Source: Candidatus Enterousia sp. (GTDB taxonomy: Bacteria > Pseudomonadota > Alphaproteobacteria > Rs-D84). From it: 64,000 bases of DNA. A program made the translations under genes and the position numbers. Location of the stretch: the NCBI GenBank assembly GCA_045613445.1, contig JAZLAZ010000020.1:10433-74432 (forward strand), given 5' to 3'. The notes below the pieces were generated by a model. The model was not told where the DNA came from and made no database searches. It worked only from the letters and a program-made list of their open reading frames with translations. Shown here in pieces: positions 25,244 to 61,255 of the stretch (position 1 is the stretch's first letter; each line of letters starts with the position of its first letter).

Positions 25244-25353
25244 ACTTTTTACTCCCTTGTTTTATCATGTTATTTTGAAAATCGTCTTGCCTTGTGGGGG
25301 CTAAATGTGGCATAATTATAAGCATATTTATGACAGGAAGAAAAGAAGAAAAA

Positions 25354-40527: not shown

Positions 40528-40554
40528 AAAAATCCCCAATTTGGGGATTTTTTT
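40526..40554. terminator. Bidirectional terminator (AAAAAAATCCCC-AATT-TGGGGATTTTTTT)
   Basis: Between the convergent ppiD-like gene and virB11. Confidence 0.85.
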
Positions 40555-41512: not shown

Positions 41513-41593
41513 CAATATGATTTTATCATAAATCGTGACTTGAATCAAAACGCTTTATTTGATAAAATTAAAAAAAAGTAAGAGAGAAATATT

Positions 41594-42151
41594 ATGAAAA
41601 AAATATCTTTATTATCAGTGTTGTGCGCATTGACATTGTGTGCATGTACAACTGGAACGACATATAACGAACAGGATTTTGCCCAGGGTGGGCCAGATGC
41701 ACCGTTGTATAACGAAAGAACCAGTGAATTTATGCAGGCTGATAATCAGTATTCAAATATTGATTCTTTTAAGCCAAAAACAGATGCAGAAAAAGAACAG
41801 ATCAGTAATCGCTGGGAAACATCACGCAAGGAAACAAGATGGCAAGAATACAAAGGGGCAATGGTGCGTGTTGAAATATTGTTGGGTAATACCGATTTAC
41901 GTGAAATGCGTCTGCGTTTGATGCAAAATGCAGATGGTATGGATATTGATGGTGATACACGTTCTGTTTTGGCGGCTGTTGCAGATTATGAAATGAAGCG
42001 CGTATGTGGTCGCAATGCGGACAGTATTGTTATGGTGTTTGATAAACCATCTTTTGATGTGATGCGTCCAACACCGTACTTTGATTACAGAATCGAGGCC
42101 GAAGGAACGACAATGCGTGAATATGGTTTCAGATGTGTATATAACAAATAG
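41594..42151 (+). CDS. Hypothetical lipoprotein
   Basis: [18 protein letters not shown] has a lipobox-like end. No recognisable domain. Confidence 0.55.
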
Positions 42152-42173
42152 TATAAACAACAAAGAGGGAAGT

Positions 42174-42503
42174 ATGAAAAAAATTATATCAGTTATGGGG
42201 GTATTATCGATGATTGGTTTAACAGCATGTGACGCTGCACAAACTGCGAAAAATGGTGATACAGTTGTAATCAATTTTGCAGGATTTTTAGATGGTGTTC
42301 AATTCCCGGGTGGTACTGCCGAAGCGTATCCATTGACATTGGGTAGTGGTGCATTTGTTCCAGGGTTTGAAGAACAATTGGTTGGTATGGCAGAAGGGGA
42401 AGAACGTGATATAAATATCACATTCCCAGAACAATATGTCGAAGGTTTAGCAGGCAAGGCCGTTGTGTTCAAGGTGAAGATAGTCGATATCTTGGAAAAA
42501 TAA
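42174..42503 (+). CDS. Small FKBP-type peptidyl-prolyl isomerase lipoprotein (trigger-factor-like PPIase domain only)
   Basis: [19 protein letters not shown] lipobox. '[45 protein letters not shown]' matches an FKBP_C/trigger-factor PPIase. Confidence 0.75.
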
Positions 42504-42531
42504 AAAAAATCCCCGTTTGGGGATTTTTTTT
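42503..42531. terminator. Bidirectional terminator (AAAAAAAATCCCC-GTTT-GGGGATTTTTTTT)
   Basis: Between the FKBP gene and the end of the Cys-rich operon. Confidence 0.85.
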
Positions 42532-42548
42532 ACTGAATATTTTATTTT

Positions 42549-44465: not shown

Positions 44466-45859
44466 TATTGTTCGTTGTTCAATGTTTTTAATTTTTCATC
44501 CAACAAGGATTTTAATTGTTCTAATTTTTTTGTTGCTTGGTTCAGGTTTTCGGTACTGGCAACACAACCATCATTTTCATCCCAGAAATAGTTATTTCTG
44601 CAGTCGCATTTATTTTGTTTTTCTTGCCATTTGCCATTACCGTCTTTTTCACATAATTTTTTTGATGTTTCAAAGTTTGGTTCTATGCATTTTGTATAAT
44701 ATACCAGTGGTATATTCTGTCGTGTGCATCGATGTTTGTATGTGTCGGGTTGTGTGCCATTTTTACAAATGGCTATTTGCCAATTGCCTTGGACGCATAT
44801 GGCAGCCTCTGCGTTTGGGTGTTGATTTAAGAATTGTTGTTTGTCTTGCTTACATGCGTCTTCATCGCCACATGTATCGGTGTCTGTTGGTTGTATTGTT
44901 GTTTGGTCGATACATTTGCCGGTGTCATTGACTGTTTGGCTGTCTTGGCATTTAACAGATTTTTTTGATACACATTTGTTTTGTGTACTGTCTAAGAAAT
45001 GCGTGTCTTTGCATGTTTCTATTTTACATACTTTTTTATCGCCCTGACATTCATAATATGCCGCACTTGCGTTCAGGGCAGTGCATTTTTTTTCATCCCT
45101 TTGTAATTCGATACATTTATGATTTGATAATTTATACCCACATTTGCATGATTTTGCATGACAAACAACATCATTGCCCACCTTGACATACTTGGCGGTT
45201 TTTGCATTTTCTGATGTACAATTATCACCAACCTTTAGTTCGCATCCTGTATAGTACACAACGGTTTCGCCATTGCGTATACATGTGGCACGATTCTGTG
45301 GTTTATAGGGTTCAACACAGCCTGTGACATGAAGAACATTATTGATACAAACCGCACCAGAAATTTTGTTTTGATTTGTTTTCAGGAAATCAAATGTTGC
45401 TGTTTTAGAACACTTGTCATCTGGGCCGCATGTATCAGTTACAGTTGATTCAACTGTTGCTACTTTTTCTGCTTCTGTTACTGTGGATACGACCGCATCG
45501 TTTGTTGCAGGTGGCAGTTGCCACGCAGGAATTTCATTTTGTGTGGCACGACTTGCGGCTGCAAAGTTAAAACTTGATTTTGAATTGTTGTTATATAAGA
45601 GGTTGCAATATTCTGTGGCAGCAGCATCAAGTTCTTGTTGTGATATGCCTGATTTCAGTCCGTTTGTACATCCTAACATACCCGAATATTTTGTTGTTTC
45701 ATCCCCGTTTATTGTTACCTTGGAACAGTGTAGTTCGCCACCACCGTTGCAGAATCTTGATGTGGGGCTTTCTGGTAAATTGTCCAGAATTTTCGCGCCA
45801 AGTGCGGGCAGGGCGGATAATACAGATGTTATAAAAATGCCGATAATTCTGCGATTCAT
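44465..45859 (-). CDS. Secreted Cys-rich protein with an internal ~65-aa duplication (P4)
   Basis: Signal peptide MNRRIIGIFITSVLSALPALGA. Repeats are DTCGPDDKC...VVYYTGCE (nt 45239-45439) and DTCGDEDAC...LVYYTKCIE (nt 44684-44881). 'CKCGYKLSNHKCIE'. The stop overlaps the P3 start (TAATG). Confidence 0.75.
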   Translation of the reverse strand: MNRRIIGIFITSVLSALPALGAKILDNLPESPTSRFCNGGGELHCSKVTINGDETTKYSGMLGCTNGLKSGISQQELDAAATEYCNLLYNNNSKSSFNFAAASRATQNEIPAWQLPPATNDAVVSTVTEAEKVATVESTVTDTCGPDDKCSKTATFDFLKTNQNKISGAVCINNVLHVTGCVEPYKPQNRATCIRNGETVVYYTGCELKVGDNCTSENAKTAKYVKVGNDVVCHAKSCKCGYKLSNHKCIELQRDEKKCTALNASAAYYECQGDKKVCKIETCKDTHFLDSTQNKCVSKKSVKCQDSQTVNDTGKCIDQTTIQPTDTDTCGDEDACKQDKQQFLNQHPNAEAAICVQGNWQIAICKNGTQPDTYKHRCTRQNIPLVYYTKCIEPNFETSKKLCEKDGNGKWQEKQNKCDCRNNYFWDENDGCVASTENLNQATKKLEQLKSLLDEKLKTLNNEQ

Positions 45860-45925
45860 GGATACGCTAAACTCTCTCTGTTACAGATAATTCTATCATT
45901 TTATAAGCGTTCAGACAAGGTGTTT

Positions 45926-47188
45926 TTAGTTGTCTGATTCATTGCGACGCGCGTTTCTGTTTGTTTCGCGCGCTGCTTGTTTGTTTGCGCGATCTATTTT
46001 CTTTTGATCGTCAATACAGCCACTTTCTTCGTCAAATGATTTTGTACCTTTGCATTTGCAGTTGTTTATTGCTTTTTGCCATGTGCCACCGGTGGTTGTG
46101 CATAATTCTTCGCCCAGGGCGCGCTCTGCCTTGGCGCGGTCGGTTGCACGATCAATCGCACCGGATGTTAGTGCGCCAGCCGCCATACCGACGCCTGCAC
46201 CCAATGCTGCAGATGATGCAGATGTTTGGGCGCGTGTTAAACGAAATGCGTTTTCCATAAATGTTGTAATGTCAACACCAAACCAGTTTTGTGTGCAATC
46301 AAATGTTGAACCGGCATATGCTTTCTTAGATGCGTATAATGTGTTGTCTTCACCAGCATAGAAATTTACAGTATAAACACAATCTAGCGATCGTTCGTCA
46401 AACATTGCGCCCAATCGATTACATGTGTCGCGCATGGCGTCACGTAATTCGTATAAACGCTGTTCATCGCGTGCGATGGCTTTTTCTGCGTTGCCACGCA
46501 GGTTGCCGAATACCTCCATCGCGCGGGATGACAAACCGCTGTCTTGCTGTTTGCAATTTGTTGCAATCTTTGCGCATTTTTGTATCGCTTTGTCACCAGC
46601 GGATTTGCCAAGGCAGTTTGTGAATTTTTGACCACATTCTGTTATTATGCAGTTATTGTATTCGTTCCCACAGTCAATAACAGATGTGTATTGTGACAAT
46701 TTGGCGTTCATGTCACGGTCAGCCTTGATTTCAGTGCTGAATAATCTGTATTCTTCGCCAGTGCATTGTGTGTCGCGACGACATAAGTCCATTTTGTTGC
46801 CCCATGCGGTGTCTGTGTCGCCAGAACATTGACCAAAGTCGTTCCCGCATTTCGATTTTATGCATGCGCGCAATTTTTGGTCACAATCATTTATGCCAGA
46901 TTTCTGGGTGGACTTAGTCTTTTGTGCCGCTGTCTCGCGGGCGGATTGTGCATTTAATGCAGCACGCTGTTTGCGAATTTTGTCTGCCAATGCATCGTCG
47001 TTTGCTGTGTTTGCAGCAGAATTTGTTGCGCCCAATACTTCATCAAACTGAGAAGTTTTCATTTCTATATTATATTCAGATGATGCCGCATGTGCGTTTG
47101 TGCACAGTAATGCACATACTGTAACCAGACCGCCAAGAAACAACGATGTTATTGTTTGTTTATTAAATTTTGATGAATTTTTTATCAT
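45926..47188 (-). CDS. Secreted Cys-rich protein with a glycine zipper (P5)
   Basis: Signal peptide ...LVTVCALLCTNAHA. Modules CDQKLRACIKSKCGNDFGQC and CGNEYNNCIITECGQKFTNC. Zipper AALGAGVGMAAGALTSGAI. Tail CTTTGGTWQKAINNCKCKGTKSFDEESGC. Confidence 0.75.
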   Translation of the reverse strand: MIKNSSKFNKQTITSLFLGGLVTVCALLCTNAHAASSEYNIEMKTSQFDEVLGATNSAANTANDDALADKIRKQRAALNAQSARETAAQKTKSTQKSGINDCDQKLRACIKSKCGNDFGQCSGDTDTAWGNKMDLCRRDTQCTGEEYRLFSTEIKADRDMNAKLSQYTSVIDCGNEYNNCIITECGQKFTNCLGKSAGDKAIQKCAKIATNCKQQDSGLSSRAMEVFGNLRGNAEKAIARDEQRLYELRDAMRDTCNRLGAMFDERSLDCVYTVNFYAGEDNTLYASKKAYAGSTFDCTQNWFGVDITTFMENAFRLTRAQTSASSAALGAGVGMAAGALTSGAIDRATDRAKAERALGEELCTTTGGTWQKAINNCKCKGTKSFDEESGCIDDQKKIDRANKQAARETNRNARRNESDN

Positions 47189-47208
47189 TTCTTCTTAGGC
47201 TTCTTTGG

Positions 47209-48066
47209 TTATCGTAATGTGTTGCATGCGATCTTGTGGAATTGGCATAACAGACCAGCAGAAACAAGTTCTGTGTTGTTTTCGCATTGATCTGGCATAT
47301 TGTTTGTGCATACTGTTTCGACGCATTTGTCGTATTCAGAATTGTTTTCACAACCTGTGCGTGTGTCAGATAATTTTGTCGCACGGGAATTTTGATATGC
47401 AGTGATAATTTGTGTCAAAATATTGTCTGTGTTTTTTATCGCATTGTCACGTTCAGACAGTAATGTAATGCGTATATCAGACATGAATTCGTCGCATCCA
47501 GTTGATTGAACGCCACATGCAGAAAAGAATTTGTCAAAGTTTGTATTTTCTTCACAATTTCTGTAATCGGCGTTGCATGCTTTTTCTGCAATTACGCAGG
47601 CTGTAATTTCTGATTCACATTCTGATTTTGTGTGTGTTTTTTTTGCATTTGCCTGTAATTTTGTCATTTGGGCAGATATACCAGCTGCAGTACAAGACTG
47701 TTCAATCAAATTATCGTATGTAGCAGTTACATCATCAGGTGTACAACCTGCAACCTTGGCAATGCATTGTTTTGTAGCCCAAACATATCTTTCGCCAGGA
47801 TCGTTTGGCGCTTTCTTTAATTCGTTCGCAGAAATATTATATTTTGCGGATGTGCCTGTTGATACAGAACGCATATTATTTTTTTGCGGTGCGCCAGCCC
47901 CAGATGTGCCACAGTACTGACAGCGCGCAGCCGGATTTGACGATATATTTATCGCACATACAGAATCCAAACATCTGGTCAGATTTGCGCGTGAACAGGT
48001 CGTCGCAGCATCTGCAATGTGACAGGTTAGTATAACAATTGGTAAAAATAGTAGATGTGCTTTCAT
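47209..48066 (-). CDS. Secreted Cys-rich protein (P6; first gene of the operon)
   Basis: Signal peptide MKAHLLFLPIVILTCHIADA. 'CSRANLTRCLDSVCAINISSNPAARCQYC' is a knot variant. Module CESEITACVIAEKACNADYRNC. Confidence 0.75.
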   Translation of the reverse strand: MKAHLLFLPIVILTCHIADAATTCSRANLTRCLDSVCAINISSNPAARCQYCGTSGAGAPQKNNMRSVSTGTSAKYNISANELKKAPNDPGERYVWATKQCIAKVAGCTPDDVTATYDNLIEQSCTAAGISAQMTKLQANAKKTHTKSECESEITACVIAEKACNADYRNCEENTNFDKFFSACGVQSTGCDEFMSDIRITLLSERDNAIKNTDNILTQIITAYQNSRATKLSDTRTGCENNSEYDKCVETVCTNNMPDQCENNTELVSAGLLCQFHKIACNTLR

Positions 48067-48793: not shown

Positions 48794-51700
48794 ATGAAAT
48801 TCATAAGAATTTTGCTGTTTTCATTGTTTTTTGTGCCTGTGGCATCGTTTGCGTCGTCAAGTGAGTTTATGATGGCTGCACAGTTATTAGCGGCCGCAAA
48901 AAATGCAGATATTCAACAAGTGCAAAGTTTGGTTAATGCTGGGGCAGATGTGAATTTTGTTGATTCTACGGGCTTATCGATTGTTTGTACTGCACTGATG
49001 AATAATGATGTGCGTGCTGCACAAATCTTACAGATGTATGGTGCTGATGCGTCCAGATGTGATTCTCAGATAAAAAAGTTTAATAATAGAACAAAACCAA
49101 AACCGTCAGGTGGATTGTTTAGCGGACTGTCGTCTGCCCAAAGTCTTACTTTAACGGCGGCGGGGGCCGCCGTTGTTGTAGGAGGGTTGTTTTTGCTGAC
49201 CGATGTATTTGATCCAGGTAATGACAACGAATCGTCTGGTAATGGTGGCAATCGTCCAAATAATAATCCAAATAATAATGGTGGTGCTGTTGGGGGTGGT
49301 AATTTGGCGTTGTCTGTGCCATACAGTCCTGCATATTTGGCGCCAGACGGTAAAATTACAACAGATGATGCCGTGTATCAGGCAAACTTAAAGTTGTGGG
49401 ACCCAAGTGGTAATAATGTTCGTACATGGGATTTTAATTATTTCAGACCAACTGTACAGACGGCTAATAATTACTTGGTTGATGGTATTGATGTTCCTGT
49501 GCAAAATTATTTGCTGATGATGCATGGGTATTCTGCGTTCGCAAATGATTATCTGGGACAGGAAATATTCCGTGATACAACAACGCATAATCCAGTGCCT
49601 GTGTCAAACAAGACAGGTGGTGGAAAACCCGTTGCTGTGGCATTGGTTACTGCAAATGGTTTGAATCCAACCGGTTCTGCAACGCGTGGTGATGGTATTT
49701 TGTATGCCGCAACCGCAGCTGCAGATTCTGTAACAGCACTGGTGGATAAGTATATAAATTATGGTAATCCGAATAAAGTATCTGGTGTTTTGGGAACAGA
49801 AATTTCGGGATTTGATTTGTCTGGTTCTGGTACTGCAATGAATCCTTTTGCCAGTGCATATCAAAATTCGCTGGGTAAAATCGTTGCCGGGTGGTATGGC
49901 ACGACAAATGATTTAACAGATGCTGATGTGCGTGGTTATGGTGATTTCTTTGGTTTTGTGCCAAATGGACGGCTGGGAATATATCGAACCGGTAATGGTA
50001 AACAGTGGGGCGATGTTGACACACCAACCAGTGGTGCTGTTGTTGGAACTGTTACAGACGCAGATGCGAATTTAGCATTGAATTCCGGTGATACGATTGT
50101 GCTAAATGGTGTTACATATAATTTGAAGTTGGCATTGGATGAAACAACACTGACCAACCCAACTGTTACAATTGGCGATACAACATATAAACTAGATGAA
50201 AATAGTAAAATGCTGATAGGGCAATGTGTTGGAACAGATTGTTCTGATATCGCAATTTATCAAGGACTGGATAATTTTTACTATGTAAATACGACTGGTG
50301 GGGATACTGTGGATTCTGTTTATGTGCTGAATAATAATAATCTGTATGTGCAAAAAGAATTACAGGATGCGGATTTTGCAACTTTCCAGGCGTTAAATAA
50401 AGCATGGGCATCTGGGGCAGGTGTGGTGGCAAATGTCAATCTGATTGATGCATCGCGTAACAGTAACTATAAAACAATTGCGGATATGCCTGCGTATATA
50501 GCAACCAGTTCACAGGCAGACGATCAAGATTTTATTGGTCTGATAAATTCTGTGTACGAAGGTAACAATGCAGATGTAAAAACACAGGGGGCATATGCAA
50601 ATGAAATGTTCTATAATTACAGTGCGTCGTCCCCAATTATGGTGATGCCTGCGGGTGAATTTGTATGGAATAATGGTTCTGTATTGGATGCGACATTTGA
50701 AAATTATGCGCCTGTGTTGTATGGAAATAATGTTGCAGATAATTTTATGACAGTTGTTGCAGTGCAACATTCGTCAGATAACGGCACATCCAGTGCAAAT
50801 TCTATTGGTGCATATGGTAATGGAACGGGGGCTGATTATGGGCCGTTATATTTGTCAATGTATTCCAAAGATGATGTGCTGTATTCTTCGCGTAAATGTG
50901 GTGTGGCAGGAACAGGTGTCGGAACAATTGATCCATGGTGTTTCGCAGCAGCAGGGGCAACAGCAGAAATGGCAACAGCATCTGCAGCAGGTGCGGTGGC
51001 TTCGTTGCAGGGGGCTTTTGATTACATGTCTAATTCACAGGTTTATCAATTGTTGGCATTGACCGCAGATGGGTATTTGCTGGGGACAGATGCATCTGGG
51101 GTTGCGTTTAATCAGGAAACATTGGCGACATATTTAAAAACAATGTATGCATTGCCACCAGAATATTATGCAGACAGCTTGACACCAGATAAATATTTAG
51201 AAGCGTTTGCAGAAACATATGGTTATGGTTTAATCAATCTGGAACGCGCGATGACACCGGGCAAGTCAATATATTTCTTTGATGGAAACGAAATTGTTTC
51301 CGCAGATGGTAATGCGTATTGGCGTGCCGCATCAAATACAGTATTCAGACCATCAGCTGCATTAAATTTATCTGGGGTATCAATCAGTGCACCGTTCTTT
51401 GATGTGGTGGAAAGTGTTGATGGTAAAATGTCTTTGCCGCGTGTATGGGAAAATGAATTTGCGTTTGATTCGACCGATGTACACGGATTGTATATGGGCG
51501 ATGTATTGGGTGACTTAAAAACAACGCGCGATAATCAGCAAGTAATAAAAGTGGGTAATTTGAATTTTTCAATGGCTGTGTCTGAACGGGCGTATGAAGA
51601 TTATATGGGTGGATTGGACAGTTTAAGATTATCGTACAGTTCTGGTAATTTAGATTTAGGCGCGTCTTATCAACGATATTTAACAAATGGCACATCACGG

Positions 51701-52480
51701 TTCAGCGGGTTGCAAAATCCGATTATGGGATTGGTATCAAACGCAATTGTATCAGATGTTGCGTATAATATTGGTAATTTGACATTTGGTGGTCATGTCT
51801 TTTCTGGGGTGATAACGGATGAAGGTTTGTTGGAAAATGATCCGACGATTTCTGCGCAATATATGCCTGCAAAATTGGGGTTGATGGACGGTGTGGATTC
51901 TTTTGTTGCGTGGAACAATAATGATTTTCGTTTAAAAACATCGTTTGGTATCGCAAATGAAACAGATACTTTGTTGGGGGCATATACAGATGGTTTATTA
52001 AATCTGGGGGCAGGTAAGACAATGTACACAGATATAGAAGCCCAGTATAAATTAAATGCAAATATAGATGTTATTGCGCGTGCCACATTTGCCAAGACAT
52101 CGTCTGATGCAACAGGTAATTTTATCTTGGGGTTGTCTGATGTTTATTCAAATGCGTTTGCGTTTGGGGCAAATATAGGTAATTTTGAATTTAGTGTTTC
52201 GCAGCCATTGGCAATAAATAGTGGGTCGATGAAATATGCATACGCAAAATACGAAGTTGATGCAGATTCAAATCTGAATATTGTTGATACTTATATTGCA
52301 GATTTGTCGTTAAAGACAGATGTTCGTGAAACAAGATTTATGGGAACTTATCGTCATAAGTTTGGTGAATTTACAGATGGTGCGTTTGGATTCATATATC
52401 GTATAAATCCAAATCATACTGATGAATTTGGAAATGAATCTATATTTATGATGAAAATAAATCATCGTTTGGGAATATAG
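48794..52480 (+). CDS. Ankyrin-repeat-headed autotransporter with a degenerate (probably inactive) S8 subtilase-like domain
   Basis: Signal peptide MKFIRILLFSLFFVPVASFA. Ankyrin-like 'LLAAAKNADIQQVQSLVNAGADVNFVDSTGLSIVCTALMNNDVRAAQILQMYGADAS'. Collinear with the S8 autotransporter at 21318-23150, but 'GTSFAAP' becomes 'ATASAAG' and 'VFDSG' becomes 'LVTANG'. Confidence 0.65.
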   Translation: MKFIRILLFSLFFVPVASFASSSEFMMAAQLLAAAKNADIQQVQSLVNAGADVNFVDSTGLSIVCTALMNNDVRAAQILQMYGADASRCDSQIKKFNNRTKPKPSGGLFSGLSSAQSLTLTAAGAAVVVGGLFLLTDVFDPGNDNESSGNGGNRPNNNPNNNGGAVGGGNLALSVPYSPAYLAPDGKITTDDAVYQANLKLWDPSGNNVRTWDFNYFRPTVQTANNYLVDGIDVPVQNYLLMMHGYSAFANDYLGQEIFRDTTTHNPVPVSNKTGGGKPVAVALVTANGLNPTGSATRGDGILYAATAAADSVTALVDKYINYGNPNKVSGVLGTEISGFDLSGSGTAMNPFASAYQNSLGKIVAGWYGTTNDLTDADVRGYGDFFGFVPNGRLGIYRTGNGKQWGDVDTPTSGAVVGTVTDADANLALNSGDTIVLNGVTYNLKLALDETTLTNPTVTIGDTTYKLDENSKMLIGQCVGTDCSDIAIYQGLDNFYYVNTTGGDTVDSVYVLNNNNLYVQKELQDADFATFQALNKAWASGAGVVANVNLIDASRNSNYKTIADMPAYIATSSQADDQDFIGLINSVYEGNNADVKTQGAYANEMFYNYSASSPIMVMPAGEFVWNNGSVLDATFENYAPVLYGNNVADNFMTVVAVQHSSDNGTSSANSIGAYGNGTGADYGPLYLSMYSKDDVLYSSRKCGVAGTGVGTIDPWCFAAAGATAEMATASAAGAVASLQGAFDYMSNSQVYQLLALTADGYLLGTDASGVAFNQETLATYLKTMYALPPEYYADSLTPDKYLEAFAETYGYGLINLERAMTPGKSIYFFDGNEIVSADGNAYWRAASNTVFRPSAALNLSGVSISAPFFDVVESVDGKMSLPRVWENEFAFDSTDVHGLYMGDVLGDLKTTRDNQQVIKVGNLNFSMAVSERAYEDYMGGLDSLRLSYSSGNLDLGASYQRYLTNGTSRFSGLQNPIMGLVSNAIVSDVAYNIGNLTFGGHVFSGVITDEGLLENDPTISAQYMPAKLGLMDGVDSFVAWNNNDFRLKTSFGIANETDTLLGAYTDGLLNLGAGKTMYTDIEAQYKLNANIDVIARATFAKTSSDATGNFILGLSDVYSNAFAFGANIGNFEFSVSQPLAINSGSMKYAYAKYEVDADSNLNIVDTYIADLSLKTDVRETRFMGTYRHKFGEFTDGAFGFIYRINPNHTDEFGNESIFMMKINHRLGI

Positions 52481-53003: not shown

Positions 53004-53034
53004 AAAAATCCCAAAGCTGGGATTTTTATTTTTT
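53002..53034. terminator. Bidirectional terminator (AAAAAAATCCC-AAAGC-TGGGATTTTTATTTTTT)
   Basis: Between convergent genes. Overlaps the last codons of the 53026-53730 ORF. Confidence 0.7.
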
Positions 53035-53730
53035 GAAATATTGCGATTTTTGGGCCTGAGAGATTGATTCCATTTTATCAAACATTCGTTCTGCATCTGT
53101 TGTAGTGGTTGGCCCCAAATGTGTGTTTTTGGAATATGTTGCACCATTTAATATGATTATGCGTTCCGGCTGTAATTTGTTATTGACGCAGTCTATATAG
53201 TATGTGCTGTTGTCATAGTATTTACCGAAACATTTTCCATTTTCAACGGCGGCATAACTGTTTTTCTTTAATGTTTCACATGTTGGTTGTGTGCCATGTA
53301 AAATGTCACCGTTTGGCAGTGTTTCATCAGAATAATCCAATACACCTTCACACCAAACCTTTACATAATCGCCTTTGACCATTACTTCGTTCCCTGACTT
53401 ATTAGTTTTGCGTCGGCCAAAGCAATCGCCATTTTCTGATAATAATTCTGTGTCATAATCTGTTTTAATAATATTTTTGTTGTTCATATCTTTTTTGCTG
53501 ACTAAAAGAGGAACAGCAGTATTTTCAACCAAGGCGTCTGGGCAAATATATTTCATGCCACGACATTTGGAATATGTATCCCACATTTCTGTATCAAATC
53601 CATTTCCCATAGTGGTGTAACATTTTGTTGTGTCGATGCGACAAATTGTTATTTGTTCCCACCATGGCAATGATATTGCCTGGTGTGTGAAAATTATAAT
53701 GCTTGCCAAGATTATTAAAAAACTTTTCAT
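53026..53730 (-). CDS. Hypothetical secreted Cys-containing protein
   Basis: Signal peptide MKSFLIILASIIIFTHQAIS, about 12 Cys, no shared module with the P family detected by eye. Confidence 0.5.
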   Translation of the reverse strand: MKSFLIILASIIIFTHQAISLPWWEQITICRIDTTKCYTTMGNGFDTEMWDTYSKCRGMKYICPDALVENTAVPLLVSKKDMNNKNIIKTDYDTELLSENGDCFGRRKTNKSGNEVMVKGDYVKVWCEGVLDYSDETLPNGDILHGTQPTCETLKKNSYAAVENGKCFGKYYDNSTYYIDCVNNKLQPERIIILNGATYSKNTHLGPTTTTDAERMFDKMESISQAQKSQYFKK

Positions 53731-53792: not shown

Positions 53793-56015
53793 TTATTGTC
53801 GGCAGTATCCCCATTTTGTATTTGCGGATGTTTCTGTATAAAATTCTGATAACAGTTTATCTTTATTGCCGTCTTCGTATGCGGTGCTGACCCATGTGCC
53901 ACCCAAACGTTCACATTCACGTGCCAACTGATTTCCCAAGCCATTGCGTATTTCGTCCATAACAACATTGATATCTTGTAATACGGTGTGTGGTAATGCG
54001 TCGTCGCGTTTGGATGGTCGTATGCATGCATCCGCAGCATAGTTGGCCATTTTGTAATACAGACTGCCTGTGTAATCCAATGGGCATGTAAGTTCTTCTA
54101 TATCGTTCAATGTGGTTGTGCCACCTGTGCAGTAATAACCATCGGGACATTTTATGCATTGACCGGGTGCCACATAGTAAAAACCTGGGTTACAAGATAT
54201 GTAGGTTCGTTTGCAAAGTGTTGTATATTTTGTGTTTTTTGAAGCAATGATAGATGCAGTTGCTTTTTCGCGGTTGCATGTAGGGTTTGATACATATTCT
54301 TGGGCCCCTGGATTATATACACGACAGCCATATGGATATGAATGTAATGTGTCTGTTCCAGGAACAGCGCATAATTCTTTGGCATAGTTTTGCAATGTGC
54401 TTAGACACTGTTGAGCAATTTGTTGTTCGATAATATTTCCCATTGTGTTTACCAAATCTTCTAGACCAACTGTGCCACCGCCGTACAAGTTACTACATGT
54501 GTCCATTTTTTCGCGACACATTGCTTCGGATAATTCCAAACGTGATCCCAGTAATAATGCTTCGTCTGTGTTGCTAAAATCTTTCAAAGATTTGTTTTGT
54601 TCGTCATAACATTGATTGACGACATTTAAGCATTCATCTTTGACCTGACGGATTTTATTTTGCTGGCCTTGATGAATTTCTGTGATTGCTTGGCGCAAAA
54701 ATTCATCCCACACATTGTCTGCAATGTCGCGACATGTGTCCAGTCCACGTTTGGCATAATCACGCATGTTGTTCAATCTGTCAACCAGCAGACGATTTGT
54801 TTGATTCGTCAATAAATCGCCAGATAAAGATGTCTGGGAATCCAATTGAAAAAAGTTCGCAGTATATATCGGTTCGCCAGTTTCATAATTCAAATATCGG
54901 CCTGTAACATCTAAACAGTGTACATAGTCTGTTCCACACGCGGCATTTGATGTGATGTCTTTACGGACCTGGGCGATACATTCGTGTATGGATGAAGAAT
55001 TATGGGCATTATAATTTTCCAGACGTAAATCGCCCATTGTGTACTCTGTGTCACGAATCGTTGCGTTTGCTGCAATCAATTGTTTGTCTAATGTGTTTAT
55101 CAACATTGAACAATCGTTTTCAATATACATTCCATATGCTGTTACAACCATTGTTTGGTTTGCACTATCCGGACAACTGGATGCAACCATTTCAGAACAT
55201 TGGGCGTGTACCGCATTATACAAAGATTCACCAGACAAGTTAGCGATATTTGTTCCGCCCGCCAGATTCGTTGTCGACCATATTGCATTTATGTCACCAG
55301 CGATATCAAGTGTACCCTGGGTGGATAATGATTCTTTTTTTGTTTTTGATAAAACAGCACTTATTCCAGATAGTTGCTTGGCACTGTCTGATTTGTCTTT
55401 TGTTTGTGATTGTGATGTTTCGCCCGCGGTTGCAGAAAGCATTGATTGTACTTCTTTGGCAGACTTATCAATAACAGCCAGATTTAATGATTTGAAATCT
55501 TCCAGTTGATTTGCAGCCTGTGATAATGCGCGTTCGCGTGATTGGATTTCTGTCAGACGCGATGAACAATAACATCTGCGATATGTGTCATTGGCAGTAC
55601 CACAGAATTGATCCATGCATGTAAAATATGCATCACGACATGTTGTATACCTGTCACCCATCTGGGTCGAGATATCAGAAGGTGTTATTGTCGCGCGATT
55701 GGTAATTGTTTTCGTATTGCGTATAACGGTGTTGCGTGGTGATGTATTTTTAGATTGCGTAGAACGTGCAATGTTTGATTTTGTGTTCCGTGCAGTTGTA
55801 TTTGTTATGGTGCGATTTGCACGCATAGAAACTGTATTGCGCTGTGAAGCATTGTTGCGGTTTTTAATATTTTTTTCAATAGCAGTGTTTTGGGCAGTAC
55901 GCGCAGGATTTATGCTGGATGTATTTCGTATAATTGTTTTTTTATCACGAACAGCAGCGTTGGCAACGCCAACACTGATAAGTAGCGCAACAAGAAGTAT
56001 TATTTTCTTCTTCAT
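53793..56015 (-). CDS. Large secreted cysteine-rich protein (P7)
   Basis: ATG 56015 (AAGGGG upstream). Signal peptide MKKKIILLVALLISVGVANA. An Arg/Asn/Thr tract (QRNT, ARNT, PRNT, IRNT). Knot 'CRDAYFTCMDQFCGTANDTYRRCYCS'. 'ACGTDYVHC'. Tail 'CERLGGTW...WGYCRQ'. Confidence 0.8.
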   Translation of the reverse strand: MKKKIILLVALLISVGVANAAVRDKKTIIRNTSSINPARTAQNTAIEKNIKNRNNASQRNTVSMRANRTITNTTARNTKSNIARSTQSKNTSPRNTVIRNTKTITNRATITPSDISTQMGDRYTTCRDAYFTCMDQFCGTANDTYRRCYCSSRLTEIQSRERALSQAANQLEDFKSLNLAVIDKSAKEVQSMLSATAGETSQSQTKDKSDSAKQLSGISAVLSKTKKESLSTQGTLDIAGDINAIWSTTNLAGGTNIANLSGESLYNAVHAQCSEMVASSCPDSANQTMVVTAYGMYIENDCSMLINTLDKQLIAANATIRDTEYTMGDLRLENYNAHNSSSIHECIAQVRKDITSNAACGTDYVHCLDVTGRYLNYETGEPIYTANFFQLDSQTSLSGDLLTNQTNRLLVDRLNNMRDYAKRGLDTCRDIADNVWDEFLRQAITEIHQGQQNKIRQVKDECLNVVNQCYDEQNKSLKDFSNTDEALLLGSRLELSEAMCREKMDTCSNLYGGGTVGLEDLVNTMGNIIEQQIAQQCLSTLQNYAKELCAVPGTDTLHSYPYGCRVYNPGAQEYVSNPTCNREKATASIIASKNTKYTTLCKRTYISCNPGFYYVAPGQCIKCPDGYYCTGGTTTLNDIEELTCPLDYTGSLYYKMANYAADACIRPSKRDDALPHTVLQDINVVMDEIRNGLGNQLARECERLGGTWVSTAYEDGNKDKLLSEFYTETSANTKWGYCRQ

Positions 56016-56081
56016 ACCCCTTCTTATAATATTTAGATATATTTTATCAAAATGTGGTAATTTAGACAAGAAAAATGAGAT

Positions 56082-56105
56082 AAAAAAACCGCAAATTGCG
56101 GTTTC
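56082..56105 (-). terminator. Terminator of infA (minus strand)
   Basis: Read on the minus strand: AAACCGCAATTTGCGGTTT followed by TTTTTAT. Confidence 0.7.
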
Positions 56106-56114
56106 GTATTTTTA

Positions 56115-56357
56115 TTATGCATTTTCTGCATTTGATTTATTTCGTTCAACGAATGTGATGCGTCCCTTGTCCAAATCATAGGGTGTCATTTCGACACGGA
56201 CGCGTTCGCCGACATTGACCCAAATGCGCGCCTTGCGCATTTTGCCACATACAGTCGCCAAAATTTCATGGCCGTTTTCCAATTTTACGCGAAACATAGT
56301 GTTTGGTAATTTATCTTCGACGGTTCCTGAAAAAACAATTACATCATCTTTTGCCAT
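56115..56357 (-). CDS. infA: Translation initiation factor IF-1
   Basis: '[32 protein letters not shown]...[18 protein letters not shown]' is the S1-like IF-1 fold. Confidence 0.95.
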
Positions 56358-56497
56358 AAATAATCCTTCAGATTTATTTGATTTTTCTGCGTTATATAAT
56401 ATGTTGTAATGCGAACAAAATCAAGTTGTTTTTATGTGCTTGCGAAGCAAAAGTTTATTTGATAAAATAAAACATAGTTTATGTAGGGTGGAGTCCG

Positions 56498-58645
56498 ATG
56501 AATTTAAGATTTCTTACAACGTTGTTTGTCTTGTTCCCAGGGATGGTTTTTGGCGCGGTGCGTACAGATGCTGCACGTATTGGTGTGCAACGCGTATCTG
56601 CAGCGGGGGCGCGAATGCCCAGTGGTACATCTGTAAAGGTAAAGGCTGTGGCTGATGTGGCGTCTGAAACCGAGGGTGTTGTTGTCGGTAGTGAAGATTC
56701 TGTTGTCGATGATGTTGTTTTGCCAGATGAACCAGGTGGTATAGGCAATACCAATGATGAAACGAATACTGCGAATTGTCGTGATGCATATCGGACGTGT
56801 ATGGATGAATTTTGCTTATTAGATGAATCCGAAGGTTACAGATGTGCATGTTCTTCAAATATAGAATCTTCAAAATCTTTGATTCAAGAAATTCAAAAAA
56901 TCCAAGAAGAAGCGGATAAATTATATACCGAAGGCGTTGAACGTGAAAACTTGGGGGCTAAAGCCAGACTGGTGTTCGGTGAAAGTGAGGCTGCTAAGAA
57001 AAGTTCCCGTGCATCTGGTTTAAGTTTTTCAGAATGGATAAGTGCGGATTCCGATGTTGATGAATTGGATGCTGATTATGATATTGGTGATAATTTGTAT
57101 GCAATGGCGTCTGAATATTGCGCTGTGGAATTAGAAAATTGTGGTGCCAAAGCAGAGATGGAAGAAATGCTGTATTCGCGTCAGATTGTGTCTGATTGCA
57201 AGGCGTTTAATTTGTATTTGGCAGATCAAAAAACAAATGCGTTGGCGAATAAACGTACTGCGGAATCTGCTGTGCGTCAGGCCAGACTGGCAATGTTGGA
57301 TACTACAAATAAATACAACCGTGGCGAATGTTTGTTAGCGTATCGTGCGTGCGTTGCAGATAAAGGGGGGTGTGGTACAAACTTTGAAAACTGTTTGGAT
57401 GCAGAATTACTGGCGCGTCGTGCAAATGCATGCGAAGGGGTTTTGGATCAATGTATGGCGGTCAGAAAGGATGTTTTGCAAGATTGGGAAGCCGAATCGG
57501 AATCGATATTAGCTGATGCAGAAAAGTATGCAGATAAATATCGTCGTCAGACATGTTTGGCGCAAATACAGGTTTGCTTGGAAGATGGCTGTTCGACATC
57601 AACAAACTCTGCGTGTTTAACAGATGTCAATGTTGCCGCAGGTGTTTGTCCAATTATTGATGAATGTAATGAAATTATCCCAGGATTGAAAACCGTTGTA
57701 AATGACAAGTTGGGTTATTTGCGTACTCAGTTCTGTCAGAATGATATTGACGCGTGTTTGCGCGACAGATGTGGTGAAAACTTTACGGCGCCAGAATGTG
57801 TTGGAAAAACACCAATGGAAATTGTAGAATTGTGCCCACAAAATATGTTCCCATCATGTAAAAATGAAACGCAGTATGATGTTATTGTGTCGGCTGCTGT
57901 GTTGCAGATGGATTATCAAATGATGCAGGGCTGTGTGAACTATTTCAGTGAACAGTTGGGGCGCACATGTGGAACAGATATGGCGTGTTTGGCATCTGAT
58001 TCGACCGTTGCTGCATTAACTGAAATTCCAGAAGATGAACAGGGAATGATTGATTTGCGCAAGACTGTTATTGAAAATTCAAAGGTTGCAGTTGCAGAAT
58101 TCTTTAAGCAGTTTGAACAGGATACAACGGTTGCTGCGTGTCAAGATGCAGAAAAACCAGCAGGTCGTAACAGCCTGGGGACAAGTATCTTTAATACAGC
58201 GAAACTGATTGCGGAAATTGGTGCTGAAAATCGTGCGATGCGTGAACTGGAAACCAAGATTGCAGAACTGTCACGTCAGCAAGATTTAGAGGAAGCTGAA
58301 AAGAATTGTTTGAATACTTACAAGGTTGAGACACCAAATAAATCGGACAAGAATTATAGTTATATCAGAAGTGTATCGTTTGAGCCAAGTTTGCGTAACT
58401 GTCATGTGTGCCGTATGCAACAGGTTTGTGAAACAGGCGGTGAATCCAAGGCGGCATCTGCATTAAAGGCTGCATCTGGTGGATTGACGGCGGGCGCATC
58501 TGCAGGTACAATGGTCAGCCCAGGTTGGGGGACCGCCATCGGTGGTGTTGTTGGTGCTGTCGGTATGGGTGTTATGGGTGCAATGTCTGGTGGTGAAAAA
58601 GAATTCTGTCAACAGATTGAGTCTTGTGAAGATATCAATATGTAA
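56498..58645 (+). CDS. Large secreted cysteine-rich protein (P8)
   Basis: Signal peptide MNLRFLTTLFVLFPGMVFGA. Knot 'CRDAYRTCMDEFCLLDESEGYRCACS'. Modules CLLAYRACVADKGGCGTNFENC and CQNDIDACLRDRCGENFTAPEC. 'CHVCRMQQVCET', then the zipper GLTAGASAGTMVSPGWGTAIGGVVGAVGMGVMGAMSGG, ending in 'CQQIESCEDINM'. Confidence 0.85.
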   Translation: MNLRFLTTLFVLFPGMVFGAVRTDAARIGVQRVSAAGARMPSGTSVKVKAVADVASETEGVVVGSEDSVVDDVVLPDEPGGIGNTNDETNTANCRDAYRTCMDEFCLLDESEGYRCACSSNIESSKSLIQEIQKIQEEADKLYTEGVERENLGAKARLVFGESEAAKKSSRASGLSFSEWISADSDVDELDADYDIGDNLYAMASEYCAVELENCGAKAEMEEMLYSRQIVSDCKAFNLYLADQKTNALANKRTAESAVRQARLAMLDTTNKYNRGECLLAYRACVADKGGCGTNFENCLDAELLARRANACEGVLDQCMAVRKDVLQDWEAESESILADAEKYADKYRRQTCLAQIQVCLEDGCSTSTNSACLTDVNVAAGVCPIIDECNEIIPGLKTVVNDKLGYLRTQFCQNDIDACLRDRCGENFTAPECVGKTPMEIVELCPQNMFPSCKNETQYDVIVSAAVLQMDYQMMQGCVNYFSEQLGRTCGTDMACLASDSTVAALTEIPEDEQGMIDLRKTVIENSKVAVAEFFKQFEQDTTVAACQDAEKPAGRNSLGTSIFNTAKLIAEIGAENRAMRELETKIAELSRQQDLEEAEKNCLNTYKVETPNKSDKNYSYIRSVSFEPSLRNCHVCRMQQVCETGGESKAASALKAASGGLTAGASAGTMVSPGWGTAIGGVVGAVGMGVMGAMSGGEKEFCQQIESCEDINM

Positions 58646-58669
58646 TTTAGTTAAAATTTGGAGAGAGAA

Positions 58670-61159
58670 ATGTCCACAAAGAAATTATCTGTGATTTGTT
58701 CTGTAATTGCAATGATGGCGGTTTTGCCACATTGCGATTCGTTTGCAGCAACAAAAAAAGCAAGTAAACAATCTGCAATCCAAACAGGTACCAAAGTTCG
58801 TACAAAAGTAGAAGTTAGTGGATTGTATGATCAAGAATGCTACGATGCGTATTATGGTTGTATGGATTCTTTCTGTATTTCCGATAATGAAAATGGGGGC
58901 AGTTGTACGTGTAGTGATTTGAACGCACAGTATGAAAAAGATTTGTTGGAAATAAAAGATCTGTTGGATAAAGCAGAACATATCAAAACAGTCGAAGTTG
59001 AAAAAGTACAGGCTGGTGCAAATGCAGATATTATATTTGGTAATGGTGAACGTGAATATGACGAGGATGGTAATATTGTCGATTTAGATAAGAAGGAAAA
59101 AAAGCAGAAAAGACAAGACTTGTTGTCTATGTGGGATGCTGCAATCGAAGAAGAGGAAGATGAAATCGATATTTCTGATTTAGTTGGTGCATCATTGTAT
59201 GAAGCGGCACAAGATTTATGTCATGAACAGATTCCTGTAAAATGTGAAAAGGACTTTGCTTTTTTAACACAGGTTTATAAACGTCAGATTACATCAGATT
59301 GTAAAGGTTTCCAAAATACTATCACACAAAAAAGGGCAGAAGCCGAAGCAGAACTGGCCAGTGCCGAAGCAGATGTTCGTTCTGCATTGAAAGATTCGTT
59401 GAATGCGGCGAACAAGTACGATTTGGGCACATGTATGGTTGAATTCAAAAAGTGTATGATGACGGATGATGCATGTGGTAAAGACTGGATGGGGTGTGTT
59501 TCGACAATCGCAGATGTCAATATGCAGGGGATCAACGAATCTACTGTGTTTAACAGTTCAAATATGAAAAAGTCTGCACAAAAAGCGTTGGACGCCAGTG
59601 CATATGGAATTGCTGCATCAACAATGGAAGGTTTGGATTCAAAACGTATTATTTGTGAACGTGTTCTGAATCAATGTGTTGCAGTACGTGATCAAGTGTG
59701 GCCAGCATTTATTCGTGAAGCAGCGCCAACAATAAAGGTCGCAGAATTAAATGCAGAATCAAAGATGCGCCAATCTTGTTTAACAAATATTTCAAATTGT
59801 ATTCAAAAAGCATGTAAAGACGATATCGCGGGCAAGGGTGTTGATACAATGGATGCGTGTTTGGCACGTCCAGATATGGCACGCAGTTTCTGTAAGGTTG
59901 AATTAGAACCATGTGAAAAAATGGAACCACAAATTTGGTCTTATGTAACAGATAAATTGGCGGCAATGCGTGTTGATGCATGTACCGAAGAAGTGAAAAA
60001 TTGTTTTACTGCTGAAAACCGTTGTGGCAAGAATTTTGAAAACTGTATCGGCATGGACTATGAGTATATTCATGACATTTGCCCAATTGATACATTGGTT
60101 GTTTGTAAACAGGGAAATCCAAACTTTTCTATGTCAGATTTGGATTCTATGTTGATGGGGTTGTATCTGAATGTTGATAATTCTGCATTGGATAATTGTC
60201 AGGCACTGGTTGATGCAAAAATGACCGAAGTTTGTGGTAGCTTGACGGACTGTAATCGTTTTGCATCTGATGATGTTATTGGAACAAATTCTTTGCGTTC
60301 TGTCAAAGATGGTACAACATATCGTGTAACAGGTATGATTTCATTTGGTTCAATTAAAATGGGTGATGCGACAGGTGTTAAAGATGGTGAAGCAATATTG
60401 GGACCTGGTGAAATTGGTGTCGCTGATTATATTGCACAAATAAAAGAAAAGAATGCGAATGTCAAAGATGCAGACGCTGTTATCGCAACAATCGAAGATG
60501 AATTAAACAATATATCTGGTACAATCAATCGTACAATTGCGATGATTGAACAGGACCCAGAAATTCAATATTGTGTTGCAGGTCGCAGCTTAAAGAATAT
60601 AACAGGTAACGATGAAATGACCGAAGCACGTTTCCCAAATCTTTTGAATTCAATTAAAACACAGATTGCTGTATCTGCACTGCGTCAGGCACAAAATAAC
60701 TATAACAAGAAATTTACAGAAGAAGTATCCAAGGCAACTGCGGATGCATCATTGGATGTGGCGCAGTATATGTGTCAAAAAGCAGCGCAACAGGGTGTGA
60801 CAGATATCACAACACCACAAACAGATTTAATTGAAAATTATGCAATCAGTTACGATGTTGGTACGGGACTGAATCAAAAAGATTTGACCACTGGCGGTTC
60901 CAAGATAACAGATTTGGGTGGTGTAAAGTTCAGTAATGCTGGGTATTTGGGGAATAAAGATGCTGCCACTGAATTAAATGCTGGTCAAAAGGAAACGACA
61001 GCGATATTTAGTCGTGAAACACGTATTTGTCGTATTTGTACAACGACATTTACACAGAGTTGCAAGACCAAGGGCAGCAAGTCGTGGTTCCACAATAACA
61101 GAAATGTTGAATGTGAAGCAGCAGCCCCGATTGAAAATTGTCAAGATATACAAATGTAA
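58670..61159 (+). CDS. Large secreted cysteine-rich protein (P9), closest paralog of P1
   Basis: ATG 58670 (GGAGAGAG upstream). Knot 'CYDAYYGCMDSFCISDNENGGSCTCS'. Modules CMVEFKKCMMTDDACGKDWMGC and CTEEVKNCFTAENRCGKNFENC. 'LAAMRVDAC' and 'CLTNISNCIQKACKDD' are shared with P1. Tail 'CRICTTTFTQSCKT...ENCQDIQM'. Confidence 0.85.
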   Translation: MSTKKLSVICSVIAMMAVLPHCDSFAATKKASKQSAIQTGTKVRTKVEVSGLYDQECYDAYYGCMDSFCISDNENGGSCTCSDLNAQYEKDLLEIKDLLDKAEHIKTVEVEKVQAGANADIIFGNGEREYDEDGNIVDLDKKEKKQKRQDLLSMWDAAIEEEEDEIDISDLVGASLYEAAQDLCHEQIPVKCEKDFAFLTQVYKRQITSDCKGFQNTITQKRAEAEAELASAEADVRSALKDSLNAANKYDLGTCMVEFKKCMMTDDACGKDWMGCVSTIADVNMQGINESTVFNSSNMKKSAQKALDASAYGIAASTMEGLDSKRIICERVLNQCVAVRDQVWPAFIREAAPTIKVAELNAESKMRQSCLTNISNCIQKACKDDIAGKGVDTMDACLARPDMARSFCKVELEPCEKMEPQIWSYVTDKLAAMRVDACTEEVKNCFTAENRCGKNFENCIGMDYEYIHDICPIDTLVVCKQGNPNFSMSDLDSMLMGLYLNVDNSALDNCQALVDAKMTEVCGSLTDCNRFASDDVIGTNSLRSVKDGTTYRVTGMISFGSIKMGDATGVKDGEAILGPGEIGVADYIAQIKEKNANVKDADAVIATIEDELNNISGTINRTIAMIEQDPEIQYCVAGRSLKNITGNDEMTEARFPNLLNSIKTQIAVSALRQAQNNYNKKFTEEVSKATADASLDVAQYMCQKAAQQGVTDITTPQTDLIENYAISYDVGTGLNQKDLTTGGSKITDLGGVKFSNAGYLGNKDAATELNAGQKETTAIFSRETRICRICTTTFTQSCKTKGSKSWFHNNRNVECEAAAPIENCQDIQM

Positions 61160-61161
61160 AT

Positions 61162-61189
61162 AAAAATTCCCCGTACGGGGAATTTTTTA
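61162..61189 (+). terminator. Terminator after P9 (AAAAATTCCCC-GTAC-GGGGAATTTTTT)
   Basis: Perfect stem plus T-run. Confidence 0.85.
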
Positions 61190-61225
61190 TCATATAATTG
61201 TCTTGATATGTTGGGGGAATGGTAA

Positions 61226-61255
61226 GAAAAATCGGGGATAACCCCGATTTTTTTA
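61226..61255 (-). terminator. Terminator of the acyl-CoA ligase gene (AAAAATCGGGG-ATAA-CCCCGATTTTTTT)
   Basis: Perfect stem with A/T runs on both sides. Confidence 0.8.

Follow-up and report, generated by a model that had tools for sequence, protein, structure and literature searches.

A family of predicted exported, cysteine-rich proteins encoded around infA in Candidatus Enterousia-type Alphaproteobacteria

Exported alpha-helical proteins in which regular pairs of cysteines (Cys) staple the helices by disulfides are known from host-associated Gram-negative bacteria, Hcp and the Sel1-like EnhC/LpnE of Legionella being examples of this kind. Other points of comparison for the proteins dealt with here are the chlamydial Cys-rich proteins OmcA/OmcB, the small CHCH-type proteins of the mitochondrial intermembrane space and glycine-zipper lipoproteins such as SlyB/Pcp and the Rickettsia 17-kDa antigen. 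We analyzed a stretch of 64,000 nucleotides (nt) from Candidatus Enterousia sp. (contig JAZLAZ010000020.1, assembly GCA_045613445.1), referred to below as the window, in which three genes for large Cys-rich proteins (P7, P8 and P9) and one for a small protein (S234) are grouped around infA, with a fourth large paralogue, P1, lying apart from them. The four large proteins are ancient paralogues of a family not described before, and we tentatively read them as disulfide-locked components of the cell envelope. Enterousia, of the order Rs-D84, has genomes of 0.75-1.0 Mb without amino-acid, nucleotide and lipid biosynthesis or respiration, and an obligately symbiotic or parasitic lifestyle has been proposed for it (PMC12306168).

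The block comprises five genes, three of them on the minus strand: S234 (53026-53730), encoding a small exported protein of 234 amino acids (aa) with 9 invariant Cys and no match in Pfam or NCBIfam; P7 (53793-56015), located directly upstream of S234 with a 62-nt gap, an intact open reading frame (ORF) of 740 aa counted from its ATG, for which a TTG extension to 56069 is possible; and infA (56115-56357), which encodes the 80-aa translation initiation factor IF-1 (TIGR00008, E = 1.7e-25; PF01176, E = 2e-23). On the plus strand, the intact ORFs of P8 (56498-58645, 715 aa) and P9 (58670-61159, 829 aa) both begin with a predicted signal peptide, followed in P8 by the family core and in P9 by a core collinear with P1; each protein has 36 invariant Cys, counted for P9 in its mature form. 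P1 (3306-6311, plus strand; 1001 aa, 38 invariant Cys) is dispersed from the block and lies between rpoA and rpsB/tsf. The gene coordinates and the 24-nt gap between P8 and P9 agree with the original prediction made on this DNA, which had however called P7, P8 and P9 giant; with 715-830 aa they are large proteins rather than giant ones. The N-termini of P1, P7, P8 and P9, as read from the sequence, are of the Sec-type signal-peptide kind, and in P1, P7 and P8 they are followed by poorly conserved, basic, probably disordered stretches. In P7 this stretch is RNT-rich and comes between the predicted signal peptide and a core at aa ~120-570, after which the C-terminal region is variable and rich in Cys, with a faint TNFR-like repeat (PF23091, E = 1.7e-4, 21.9 bits against a gathering score of 33.2, 24 residues matched).

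That P7, P8 and P9 form one family with P1, as had been proposed, is borne out by BLASTP comparisons, with E-values ranging from 6e-116 to 5e-9. P1 and P9 are 34% identical over 758 aa (E = 6e-116), P1 matches P8 at E = 9e-44 and P8 matches P9 at E = 2e-40; the most divergent of the four is P7, which is matched to P1 at E = 4e-20, to P9 at E = 5e-18 and to P8 at E = 5e-9, identities among the paralogues being 21-34% overall. A low-complexity artefact was considered for the similarity between P1 and P9 and ruled out, as hard SEG masking still gave E = 2e-100; the claimed collinearity does extend beyond low-complexity regions, and the motifs LSMWDA, NKYDLG-C, C-x-NIS-C-x-QKACKD, LAAMRVD-C and CP-x-D-x-LV-x-C are all there and aligned. 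A hidden Markov model (HMM) of the family, compared with every ORF of 80 aa or longer in the window (192 in total), matched P1, P7, P8 and P9 only, so that we rejected the idea of a nine-member giant family in the window; the ORFs at 10101-12431, 42549-44465 (with an OmpA domain), 25294-30513, 30934-34236 and 48794-52480 are unrelated by HMM. S234 was likewise rejected as a truncated member, its hhalign probability against the P1, P7, P8 and P9 profiles being 8% at most.

When 1.8 billion representatives were searched with a profile built from the four paralogues, 1005 clusters (50% identity) matched at E <= 1e-3, 538 of them still at E <= 1e-30; the best 150 representatives matched were 96 P1-like, 26 P9-like, 20 P7-like and 8 P8-like sequences. 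Homologues of P9 number more than 1200 at 90% clustering, and the sole name found for them is 'hypothetical protein [Alphaproteobacteria bacterium]'. Full-text literature on 'Enterousia' and 'Rs-D84' yielded no paper describing the P1/P7/P8/P9 family.

To place the locus among its relatives, species representatives of GTDB were scanned with P9, which gave 467 matching stretches; the loci compared here are the best 80 of them (P9 identity of at least 58%), all from metagenome-assembled genomes (MAGs) of animal and human guts labelled Candidatus Enterousia, Alphaproteobacteria or 'uncultured Rickettsiales'. Wherever the flank is long enough (~65 species), the order is identical, with S234, P7 and infA on the minus strand and P8 and P9 diverging from them on the plus strand; infA thus proved to be always inside the locus within this lineage, and at nearly all loci with flanking sequence of sufficient length (65 loci) S234 has an orthologue in the equivalent position. 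Identities of 1:1 orthologues across loci are 44-71% for P7, 46-88% for P8, 58-89% for P9, 40-62% for S234 and 86-98% for infA, and 120 orthologues of P1 were found at 56-83%. This conservation is not mere genome stasis, because both flanks of the block differ among loci (an autotransporter-like gene, ClpP/ClpX or other on the left; MscS, BOF, OmpA or an AMP-binding enzyme on the right), and so does the placement of P1, whose orthologue adjoins rpoA-rplQ in locus L083 and lies directly beside S234 in locus L043.

The paralogues, being 21-34% identical as against 44-89% for 1:1 orthologues kept in the same order and orientation, must have arisen by duplications older than the radiation of the genus. 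P1, P7, P8 and P9 are hence four ancient paralogues, which refutes the recent duplication and dispersal that had been suggested for them, and the five-gene block is ancestral in Candidatus Enterousia-type Alphaproteobacteria (order Rs-D84). As read from the best 80 of the 467 stretches, the family they make up seems to be an undescribed, lineage-restricted one.

Two records among the loci deserve a separate comment. One MAG (JAZTYU01) has two contigs, loci L070 and L079, each with a P8-P9 pair whose P9 is 59% and 58% identical, respectively, to that of the window; either two strains share one bin or the block is really duplicated. Locus L076 (CAVGNU010000011.1), with a complete Enterousia-type block, was deposited as 'Bacteroides fragilis' and is probably mis-binned or mislabelled.

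Ratios of nonsynonymous to synonymous substitution rates (dN/dS) were computed between orthologues, since at the 21-34% identity of the paralogues synonymous sites are saturated and a ratio between these has no meaning. Against the closest relative, locus L003 (dS 0.55-1.3), the values were 0.11 for P8, 0.08 for P9, 0.12 for P7, 0.17 for S234 and 0.015 for infA. Against locus L001, identities are 56% for P7, 67% for P8, 63% for P9, 44% for S234 and 87.5% for infA, the P8 and P9 values being comparable with those of RNase HII (72%) and PGK (74%); across loci P8 and P9 are far more conserved than their neighbours, the OmpA-domain protein (35-58% identical) and the autotransporter-like protein (39-76%). 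The rate at which P8 and P9 evolve is thus housekeeping-like, not antigen-like. None of P1, P7, P8 and P9 is a pseudogene, their ORFs being intact and under purifying selection, and each of the four is represented by single-copy orthologues under strong constraint.

The C-terminal regions of the paralogues differ in their architecture. Glycine zippers are positioned as had been claimed: in P1 the zipper, forming a hydrophobic hairpin (nt 5928-6077, plus strand; aa 875-924), comes before the CxxC, in P8 (58469-58594, plus strand; aa 658-699) it is found within the C-terminal Cys module, after CxxC-x5-C and before the last two Cys, and P9 has none. The P8 segment is uncharged, displays the pattern GxxxGxxxG, contains GTAIGGVVG, is highly conserved among orthologues and reaches a maximal Kyte-Doolittle hydropathy of 1.52 over 19 aa; the P1 segment is also uncharged, with hydropathy up to 1.88 over 19 aa, and no hydrophobic anchor is seen in P9. 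Regarding the end motif said to be shared by P8 and P9, C-[EQ]-D-I-x-M is correct, but the spacing ahead of it is C-x5-C in P8 and C-x8-C in P9, not x4/5; the motif reads C-x5-C-E-D-I-N-M in P8 (58607-58642, plus strand), and in P9 it closes a five-Cys beta module (61028-61156, plus strand) of the form CxxC-x7-C ... C-x8-C-Q-D-I-Q-M. P1 has a tail of similar kind, C-T-E-T-Q-F, which as C-x-x-[TIV]-Q-F is universal among its 120 orthologues; ESCEDINM or ESCEDVNM is the tail of 64 of the 76 P8 orthologues, and xCEDIxM that of nearly all P9 orthologues. Zippers are present in all P8-like sequences and in 110 of the 120 P1 orthologues and absent from 119 of the 120 P9 orthologues.

These observations bear on the model of the original prediction, according to which recent dispersed duplicates are having their anchoring modules shuffled, producing anchored and released isoforms with phase- or condition-specific use. 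The four homologues do differ in the presence and position of the zipper, and among distant family representatives the zipper is variably there, some P9-like sequences carrying one and many P1-like sequences being without it, which suggests that the element has moved, but over long evolutionary time. The timing of the model is contradicted by the identities given above and by the perfect synteny in ~65 species; within the genus the C-terminal layouts are fixed and paralogue-specific, their zipper differences being ancient, and purifying selection acts on ORFs that are all intact (the check for repeats, phase-variation tracts and pseudogenes was an indirect one). We thus regard this model as extremely unlikely. 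What stands of it is that the C-terminal elements truly differ, as a fixed property of each paralogue and not through ongoing shuffling, and that anchored (P1/P8) and released or untethered (P9) forms are possible.

The mature Cys are conserved at 99-100% in P8 (36 Cys, 76 sequences), P9 (36 Cys, 80 sequences) and P1 (38 Cys, 120 sequences), and the counts themselves are nearly constant: 36 in 73/76 P8, 36 in 79/80 P9 and 38 in 115/120 P1 orthologues. All 9 Cys of S234 are 100% conserved, 64 of its 65 orthologues having exactly this number. The count in P7 varies from 24 to 43 and is nonetheless odd in 58 of 67 orthologues, from which it appears that Cys were gained in pairs. Even parity in P1, P8 and P9 combined with such paired gain in P7 is what disulfide pairing would predict; given this pairing, P7 and S234 would each be left with one unpaired Cys, and the odd Cys of these adjacent proteins suggest one P7-S234 intermolecular disulfide, or homodimers. 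The common spacing of the Cys is 6,4,9,1 / ~100 / 6-7,18 / 43 / 6,6,6 / ... / 6,33,6,4, Cx6C being dominant, and the C-x6-C-x6-C-x6-C module gives a weak internal repeat (hhalign E = 1.7e-4).

Alternatively, the Cys could be functional thiols or metal ligands, serving in a periplasmic redox buffer or in metal or Fe-S binding, for which the 36-38 invariant Cys per protein, the one CxxC in the C-terminal module, the anoxic habitat and a lineage without the respiratory chains that normally re-oxidise DsbB (PMC12306168) could be adduced. The even parity and the paired gain in P7 are instead the signature of disulfide pairing, and the family sequences contain neither the heme motif CxxCH nor a Tat-type signal, nor was any match to a metal-binding family obtained. 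Moreover, Cx6C on helices is not, to our knowledge, a metal-site spacing. A further point concerns a related genome, where a membrane-anchored DsbA-like thioredoxin-fold protein with the active site CPFC is encoded 6 kb from the block (locus L001, 18099-18923); the window has no copy of it, and we counted the presence of this oxidoreductase near the block in a relative in favor of disulfides and against free thiols or metal sites, a reading which is very unlikely in our opinion.

Models generated by AlphaFold2 (AF2) consist mostly of long alpha-helices and end, at the C-terminus, in a compact beta module holding the last five Cys. The P1 model has a predicted local distance difference test (pLDDT) score of 74.3 and a predicted template modelling (pTM) score of 0.51, with 704 residues at pLDDT >= 70; for the P9 model the values are pLDDT 67.7 and pTM 0.40. 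Foldseek matches of the C-terminal beta module to levivirus-coat and secretin-like structures had probabilities of 0.8 or less and E > 0.5, and were not taken as evidence. The sole match in PHROGs was that of the low-complexity Gly-rich segment of P8 to a tape-measure PHROG (E = 0.003); no PADLOC model matched.

Together, these features can be read as those of disulfide-locked helical envelope components, with P1 and P8 membrane-tethered, P9 an untethered partner of P8, and P7 possibly linked to S234; we consider this reading plausible, though still short of probable. Sec-type export would take the proteins out of the cytoplasm, where intramolecular disulfides, ~18-19 per protein, would lock the helical scaffold, and there they would act as structural parts of the envelope, periplasmic or associated with the outer membrane. 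The tether of P1 and P8 would be the glycine-zipper helical hairpin, the Gly/Ala-rich segment being flanked on both sides by extracytoplasmic sequence as a hairpin inserted in the membrane would be; P9 would be made from the same transcript as P8 and remain untethered, and docking or assembly would go through the Cys module that the paralogues share at their C-termini, with its end C-x-[DE]-[ITV]-x-[MF]. P7 and S234 are neighbours with odd Cys counts, so a single disulfide may link the two proteins. A more ambitious version, in which P1, P7, P8, P9 and S234 together form an extracytoplasmic structure of new fold, locked by disulfides and peculiar to the lineage, for instance an envelope scaffold or an attachment organelle for partner contact, with P7 and S234 linked covalently and P8 and P9 through their C-terminal module, is in our view unlikely.

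Several points weigh against the envelope reading. The proposed function and localisation are predictions, the latter made from the signal-peptide-like N-termini. P1, P7, P8 and P9 had no match of use in Pfam, NCBIfam, PHROGs, PADLOC or PDB sequences, and Foldseek returned no match at E <= 0.001 for the P1 and P9 models against PDB or for one model against BFVD. When the isolated Gly-rich segments were compared with PF13488, PF05433, PF13436 and PF13441 (E <= 10), the best match of P8 was to PF13488 with E = 1 (9.7 bits against a cut-off of 25) and P1 matched nothing; the zipper segment is also of low confidence in the AF2 model of P1. Re-oxidation of a Dsb system would be hard to explain in an anoxic gut and with the reported absence of respiratory chains (PMC12306168). 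Finally, the P8-P9 and P7-S234 partnerships are proposals, and conservation of the block applies to the best 80 P9 matches, with P9 identity of at least 58%.

The main rival explanation holds that these are surface-exposed or secreted factors for interaction with host or partner cells, either adhesins or effectors, the C-terminal motif being a sorting or secretion signal. P7 would fit this explanation, as its Cys-rich C-terminal region varies in Cys number and in length, orthologues ranging from 529 to 1014 aa; exposed adhesins, however, do not typically show the slow evolution of P8, P9 and P1 (dN/dS ~0.1), whose length is constant and whose Cys are all invariant, and these three are more conserved than the adjacent autotransporter-like and OmpA-domain proteins. 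A conserved motif at the extreme C-terminus is typical of sorting signals, but neither a known sorting-signal family nor an outer-membrane translocation domain was detected with Pfam and NCBIfam; the autotransporter translocator PF03797 is in the ORF at 30934-34236 and not in P1, P7, P8 or P9, and the family HMM misses the autotransporter-like ORFs. The setting would also be suitable, the lineage having been proposed to be symbiotic or parasitic, with many unknown membrane proteins (PMC12306168), and the window being rich in autotransporter/Pmp-like proteins and having a VirB11-like ATPase; linkage to the cluster of the latter is not conserved, however, as the left flank of the block varies. 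We judge a surface role of this type somewhat unlikely, and keep the envelope reading as the preferred one.

Regarding transcription, a sequence scan found an intrinsic-terminator-like hairpin with a T-run directly after infA and before P7 (56085-56105, minus strand), and in 64 of 68 related loci there is a hairpin of -7 kcal/mol or lower with a T-rich tail after infA, with stems that differ in sequence. P7 has its own promoter-like site, TTGTCT-17-TAAAAT with a TG extension (56041-56069, minus strand), which was found by consensus scan only. Between infA and P8, the divergent intergenic region (56358-56497) has back-to-back promoter-like sites, TTGATT-17-TATTAT for infA (56424-56396, minus strand) and TTGCGA-17-TAAAAT with a TG extension for P8 (56440-56468, plus strand), and the plus-strand Shine-Dalgarno sequence GTAGGGTGGAG ahead of P8; the spacer measures 125-152 nt, and in the 68-locus alignment both promoter-like sites and the P8 Shine-Dalgarno sequence are conserved. 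A riboswitch or leader upstream of P8 was considered and rejected, as Rfam found only a tRNA in the window and promoters plus Shine-Dalgarno sequence explain the spacer. The P9 ATG falls exactly 24 nt past the P8 stop, with a Shine-Dalgarno sequence (GGAGAG) ahead of it and no terminator in the gap, and the two genes are probably co-transcribed; terminator-like hairpins on both strands (61162-61254), also from the sequence scan, close the P8-P9 unit and the convergent gene for an AMP-binding enzyme. The transcription units would then be infA alone, P7 (with S234) and P8-P9.

We infer from this arrangement that infA is a separately terminated passenger and not functionally part of the system. 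It stays in the block, we propose, because its promoter overlaps or abuts that of P8 within the 125-152 nt spacer, where a breakpoint would probably be harmful. That infA is functionally coupled to the family, as it would be if the shared divergent promoter region served to regulate translation initiation and the synthesis of envelope proteins together, seems decidedly unlikely. The shortness and conservation of the spacer would suit it, but overlapping promoters alone can make a breakpoint deleterious, and this would also apply to the fact that infA was never parted from the block though both flanks rearrange; the two -35 elements, ~13 bp apart, do form an inverted repeat, which is automatic for two back-to-back -35 boxes. 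In addition, infA is served by a promoter of its own and followed by a terminator that is conserved, and no regulator or operator was identified.

Other genes of the window are worth mentioning. At 40553-48066 (minus strand), a VirB11-like ATPase (TIGR02788, E = 4e-43, below cut-off) is encoded downstream of four co-oriented ORFs, three of which (285, 420 and 464 aa) have no family match and the fourth of which has a Cys-rich product of 638 aa with an OmpA domain; the genes may make up a highly divergent cluster for type IV secretion or a pilus. A Cys-rich protein of 776 aa with 28 Cys and no family match is encoded at 10101-12431 (plus strand), with a 310-aa neighbour at 9230-10162 (minus strand). 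Orthologues of the two (45% and 36% identity) lie directly beside the P1 orthologue in L083, so that a second unannotated Cys-rich family appears to travel near P1. The ORF at 30934-34236 (plus strand) encodes a very large exported protein with an autotransporter beta-domain and Chlam_PMP repeats, and those at 25294-30513 and 48794-52480 (both plus strand) encode very large exported proteins with autotransporter-like C-terminal ends and no Pfam match. A subtilase ending in F (21318-23222, minus strand) and a gene of the choloylglycine (bile-salt) hydrolase family (16356-17432, minus strand; PF02275, E = 1e-66), which fits a gut lifestyle, are also present. Upstream of rpoA, a 438-aa ORF without Pfam or NCBIfam match (20-1336, plus strand) equals in length the SecY (438 aa) of the syntenic region of L083, but tblastn showed no similarity between the two.

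Candidatus Enterousia/Rs-D84 are widespread uncultured gut Alphaproteobacteria whose genomes, smaller than 1 Mb, are devoid of most biosynthetic pathways (PMC12306168). That such a tiny genome keeps ~10 kb, roughly 1% of its length, for four large paralogues, in every species examined and with every Cys invariant, points to an essential, lineage-defining function in the envelope. With neither annotation nor domain match nor structural relative, the P family is a concrete target for studying how reduced bacteria build their surface or contact their partners, and Cys parity yields a prediction that is cheap to test, the P7-S234 disulfide. The locus gives no evidence for a recently expanded gene family or for phase variation.

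Among the described systems, Helicobacter Hcp and EnhC/LpnE resemble the P family in that its Cys pairs recur at a fixed Cx6C spacing and at intervals of ~33-43 residues; the P pattern differs in not being a simple tandem repeat and in adding a C-terminal beta module and glycine-zipper segments. A Pfam scan found no Sel1 (PF08238) or TPR profile in P1, P7, P8 or P9 at E <= 0.1, and Foldseek found no HcpB/HcpC-like alpha/alpha solenoid in PDB at E <= 0.001 for the P1 and P9 models. OmcA/OmcB, which belong to the outer membrane complex that is cross-linked by disulfides in chlamydiae, are likewise Cys-rich exported proteins of a host-dependent bacterium that also encodes Pmp-type autotransporters, and the envelope role proposed here is similar to theirs; the even parity of P1, P8 and P9, however, points to intramolecular disulfides and not to lattice-forming intermolecular ones, no Pfam or NCBIfam match relates the P proteins to the OmcA/OmcB family, and Enterousia is reported to keep the cell-wall machinery MreB/RodA/MrdA (PMC12306168).

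With the twin CX9C and CX3C proteins of the CHCH type, the P family shares Cys placed at multiples of helical turns (i, i+7 in the P family), here as consecutive C-x6-C-x6-C-x6-C. Consecutive Cx6C is a geometry compatible with nested disulfides between antiparallel helices. The CHCH-type proteins of the mitochondrial intermembrane space are small single hairpins, whereas P family members are multi-module proteins of 700-1000 aa whose pairing is predicted only. As for SlyB/Pcp and the Rickettsia 17-kDa antigen (PF05433, PF13488), the likeness is in the uncharged Gly/Ala-rich GxxxG segment of 40-50 residues between extracytoplasmic sequences; P1 and P8 differ from these lipoproteins in having no lipobox, in the segment lying near the C-terminus of a very large protein, and in a Pfam match of E = 1 only. 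In conclusion, Hcp/Sel1-like, chlamydial Cys-rich and glycine-zipper proteins resemble the P family in principle; sequence, profile and fold comparisons failed to place it within any of them, and the feature that it does have in common with the glycine-zipper proteins is a hairpin of membrane length, uncharged and with GxxxG-type repeats, in P8 (aa 658-699) and P1 (aa 875-924).

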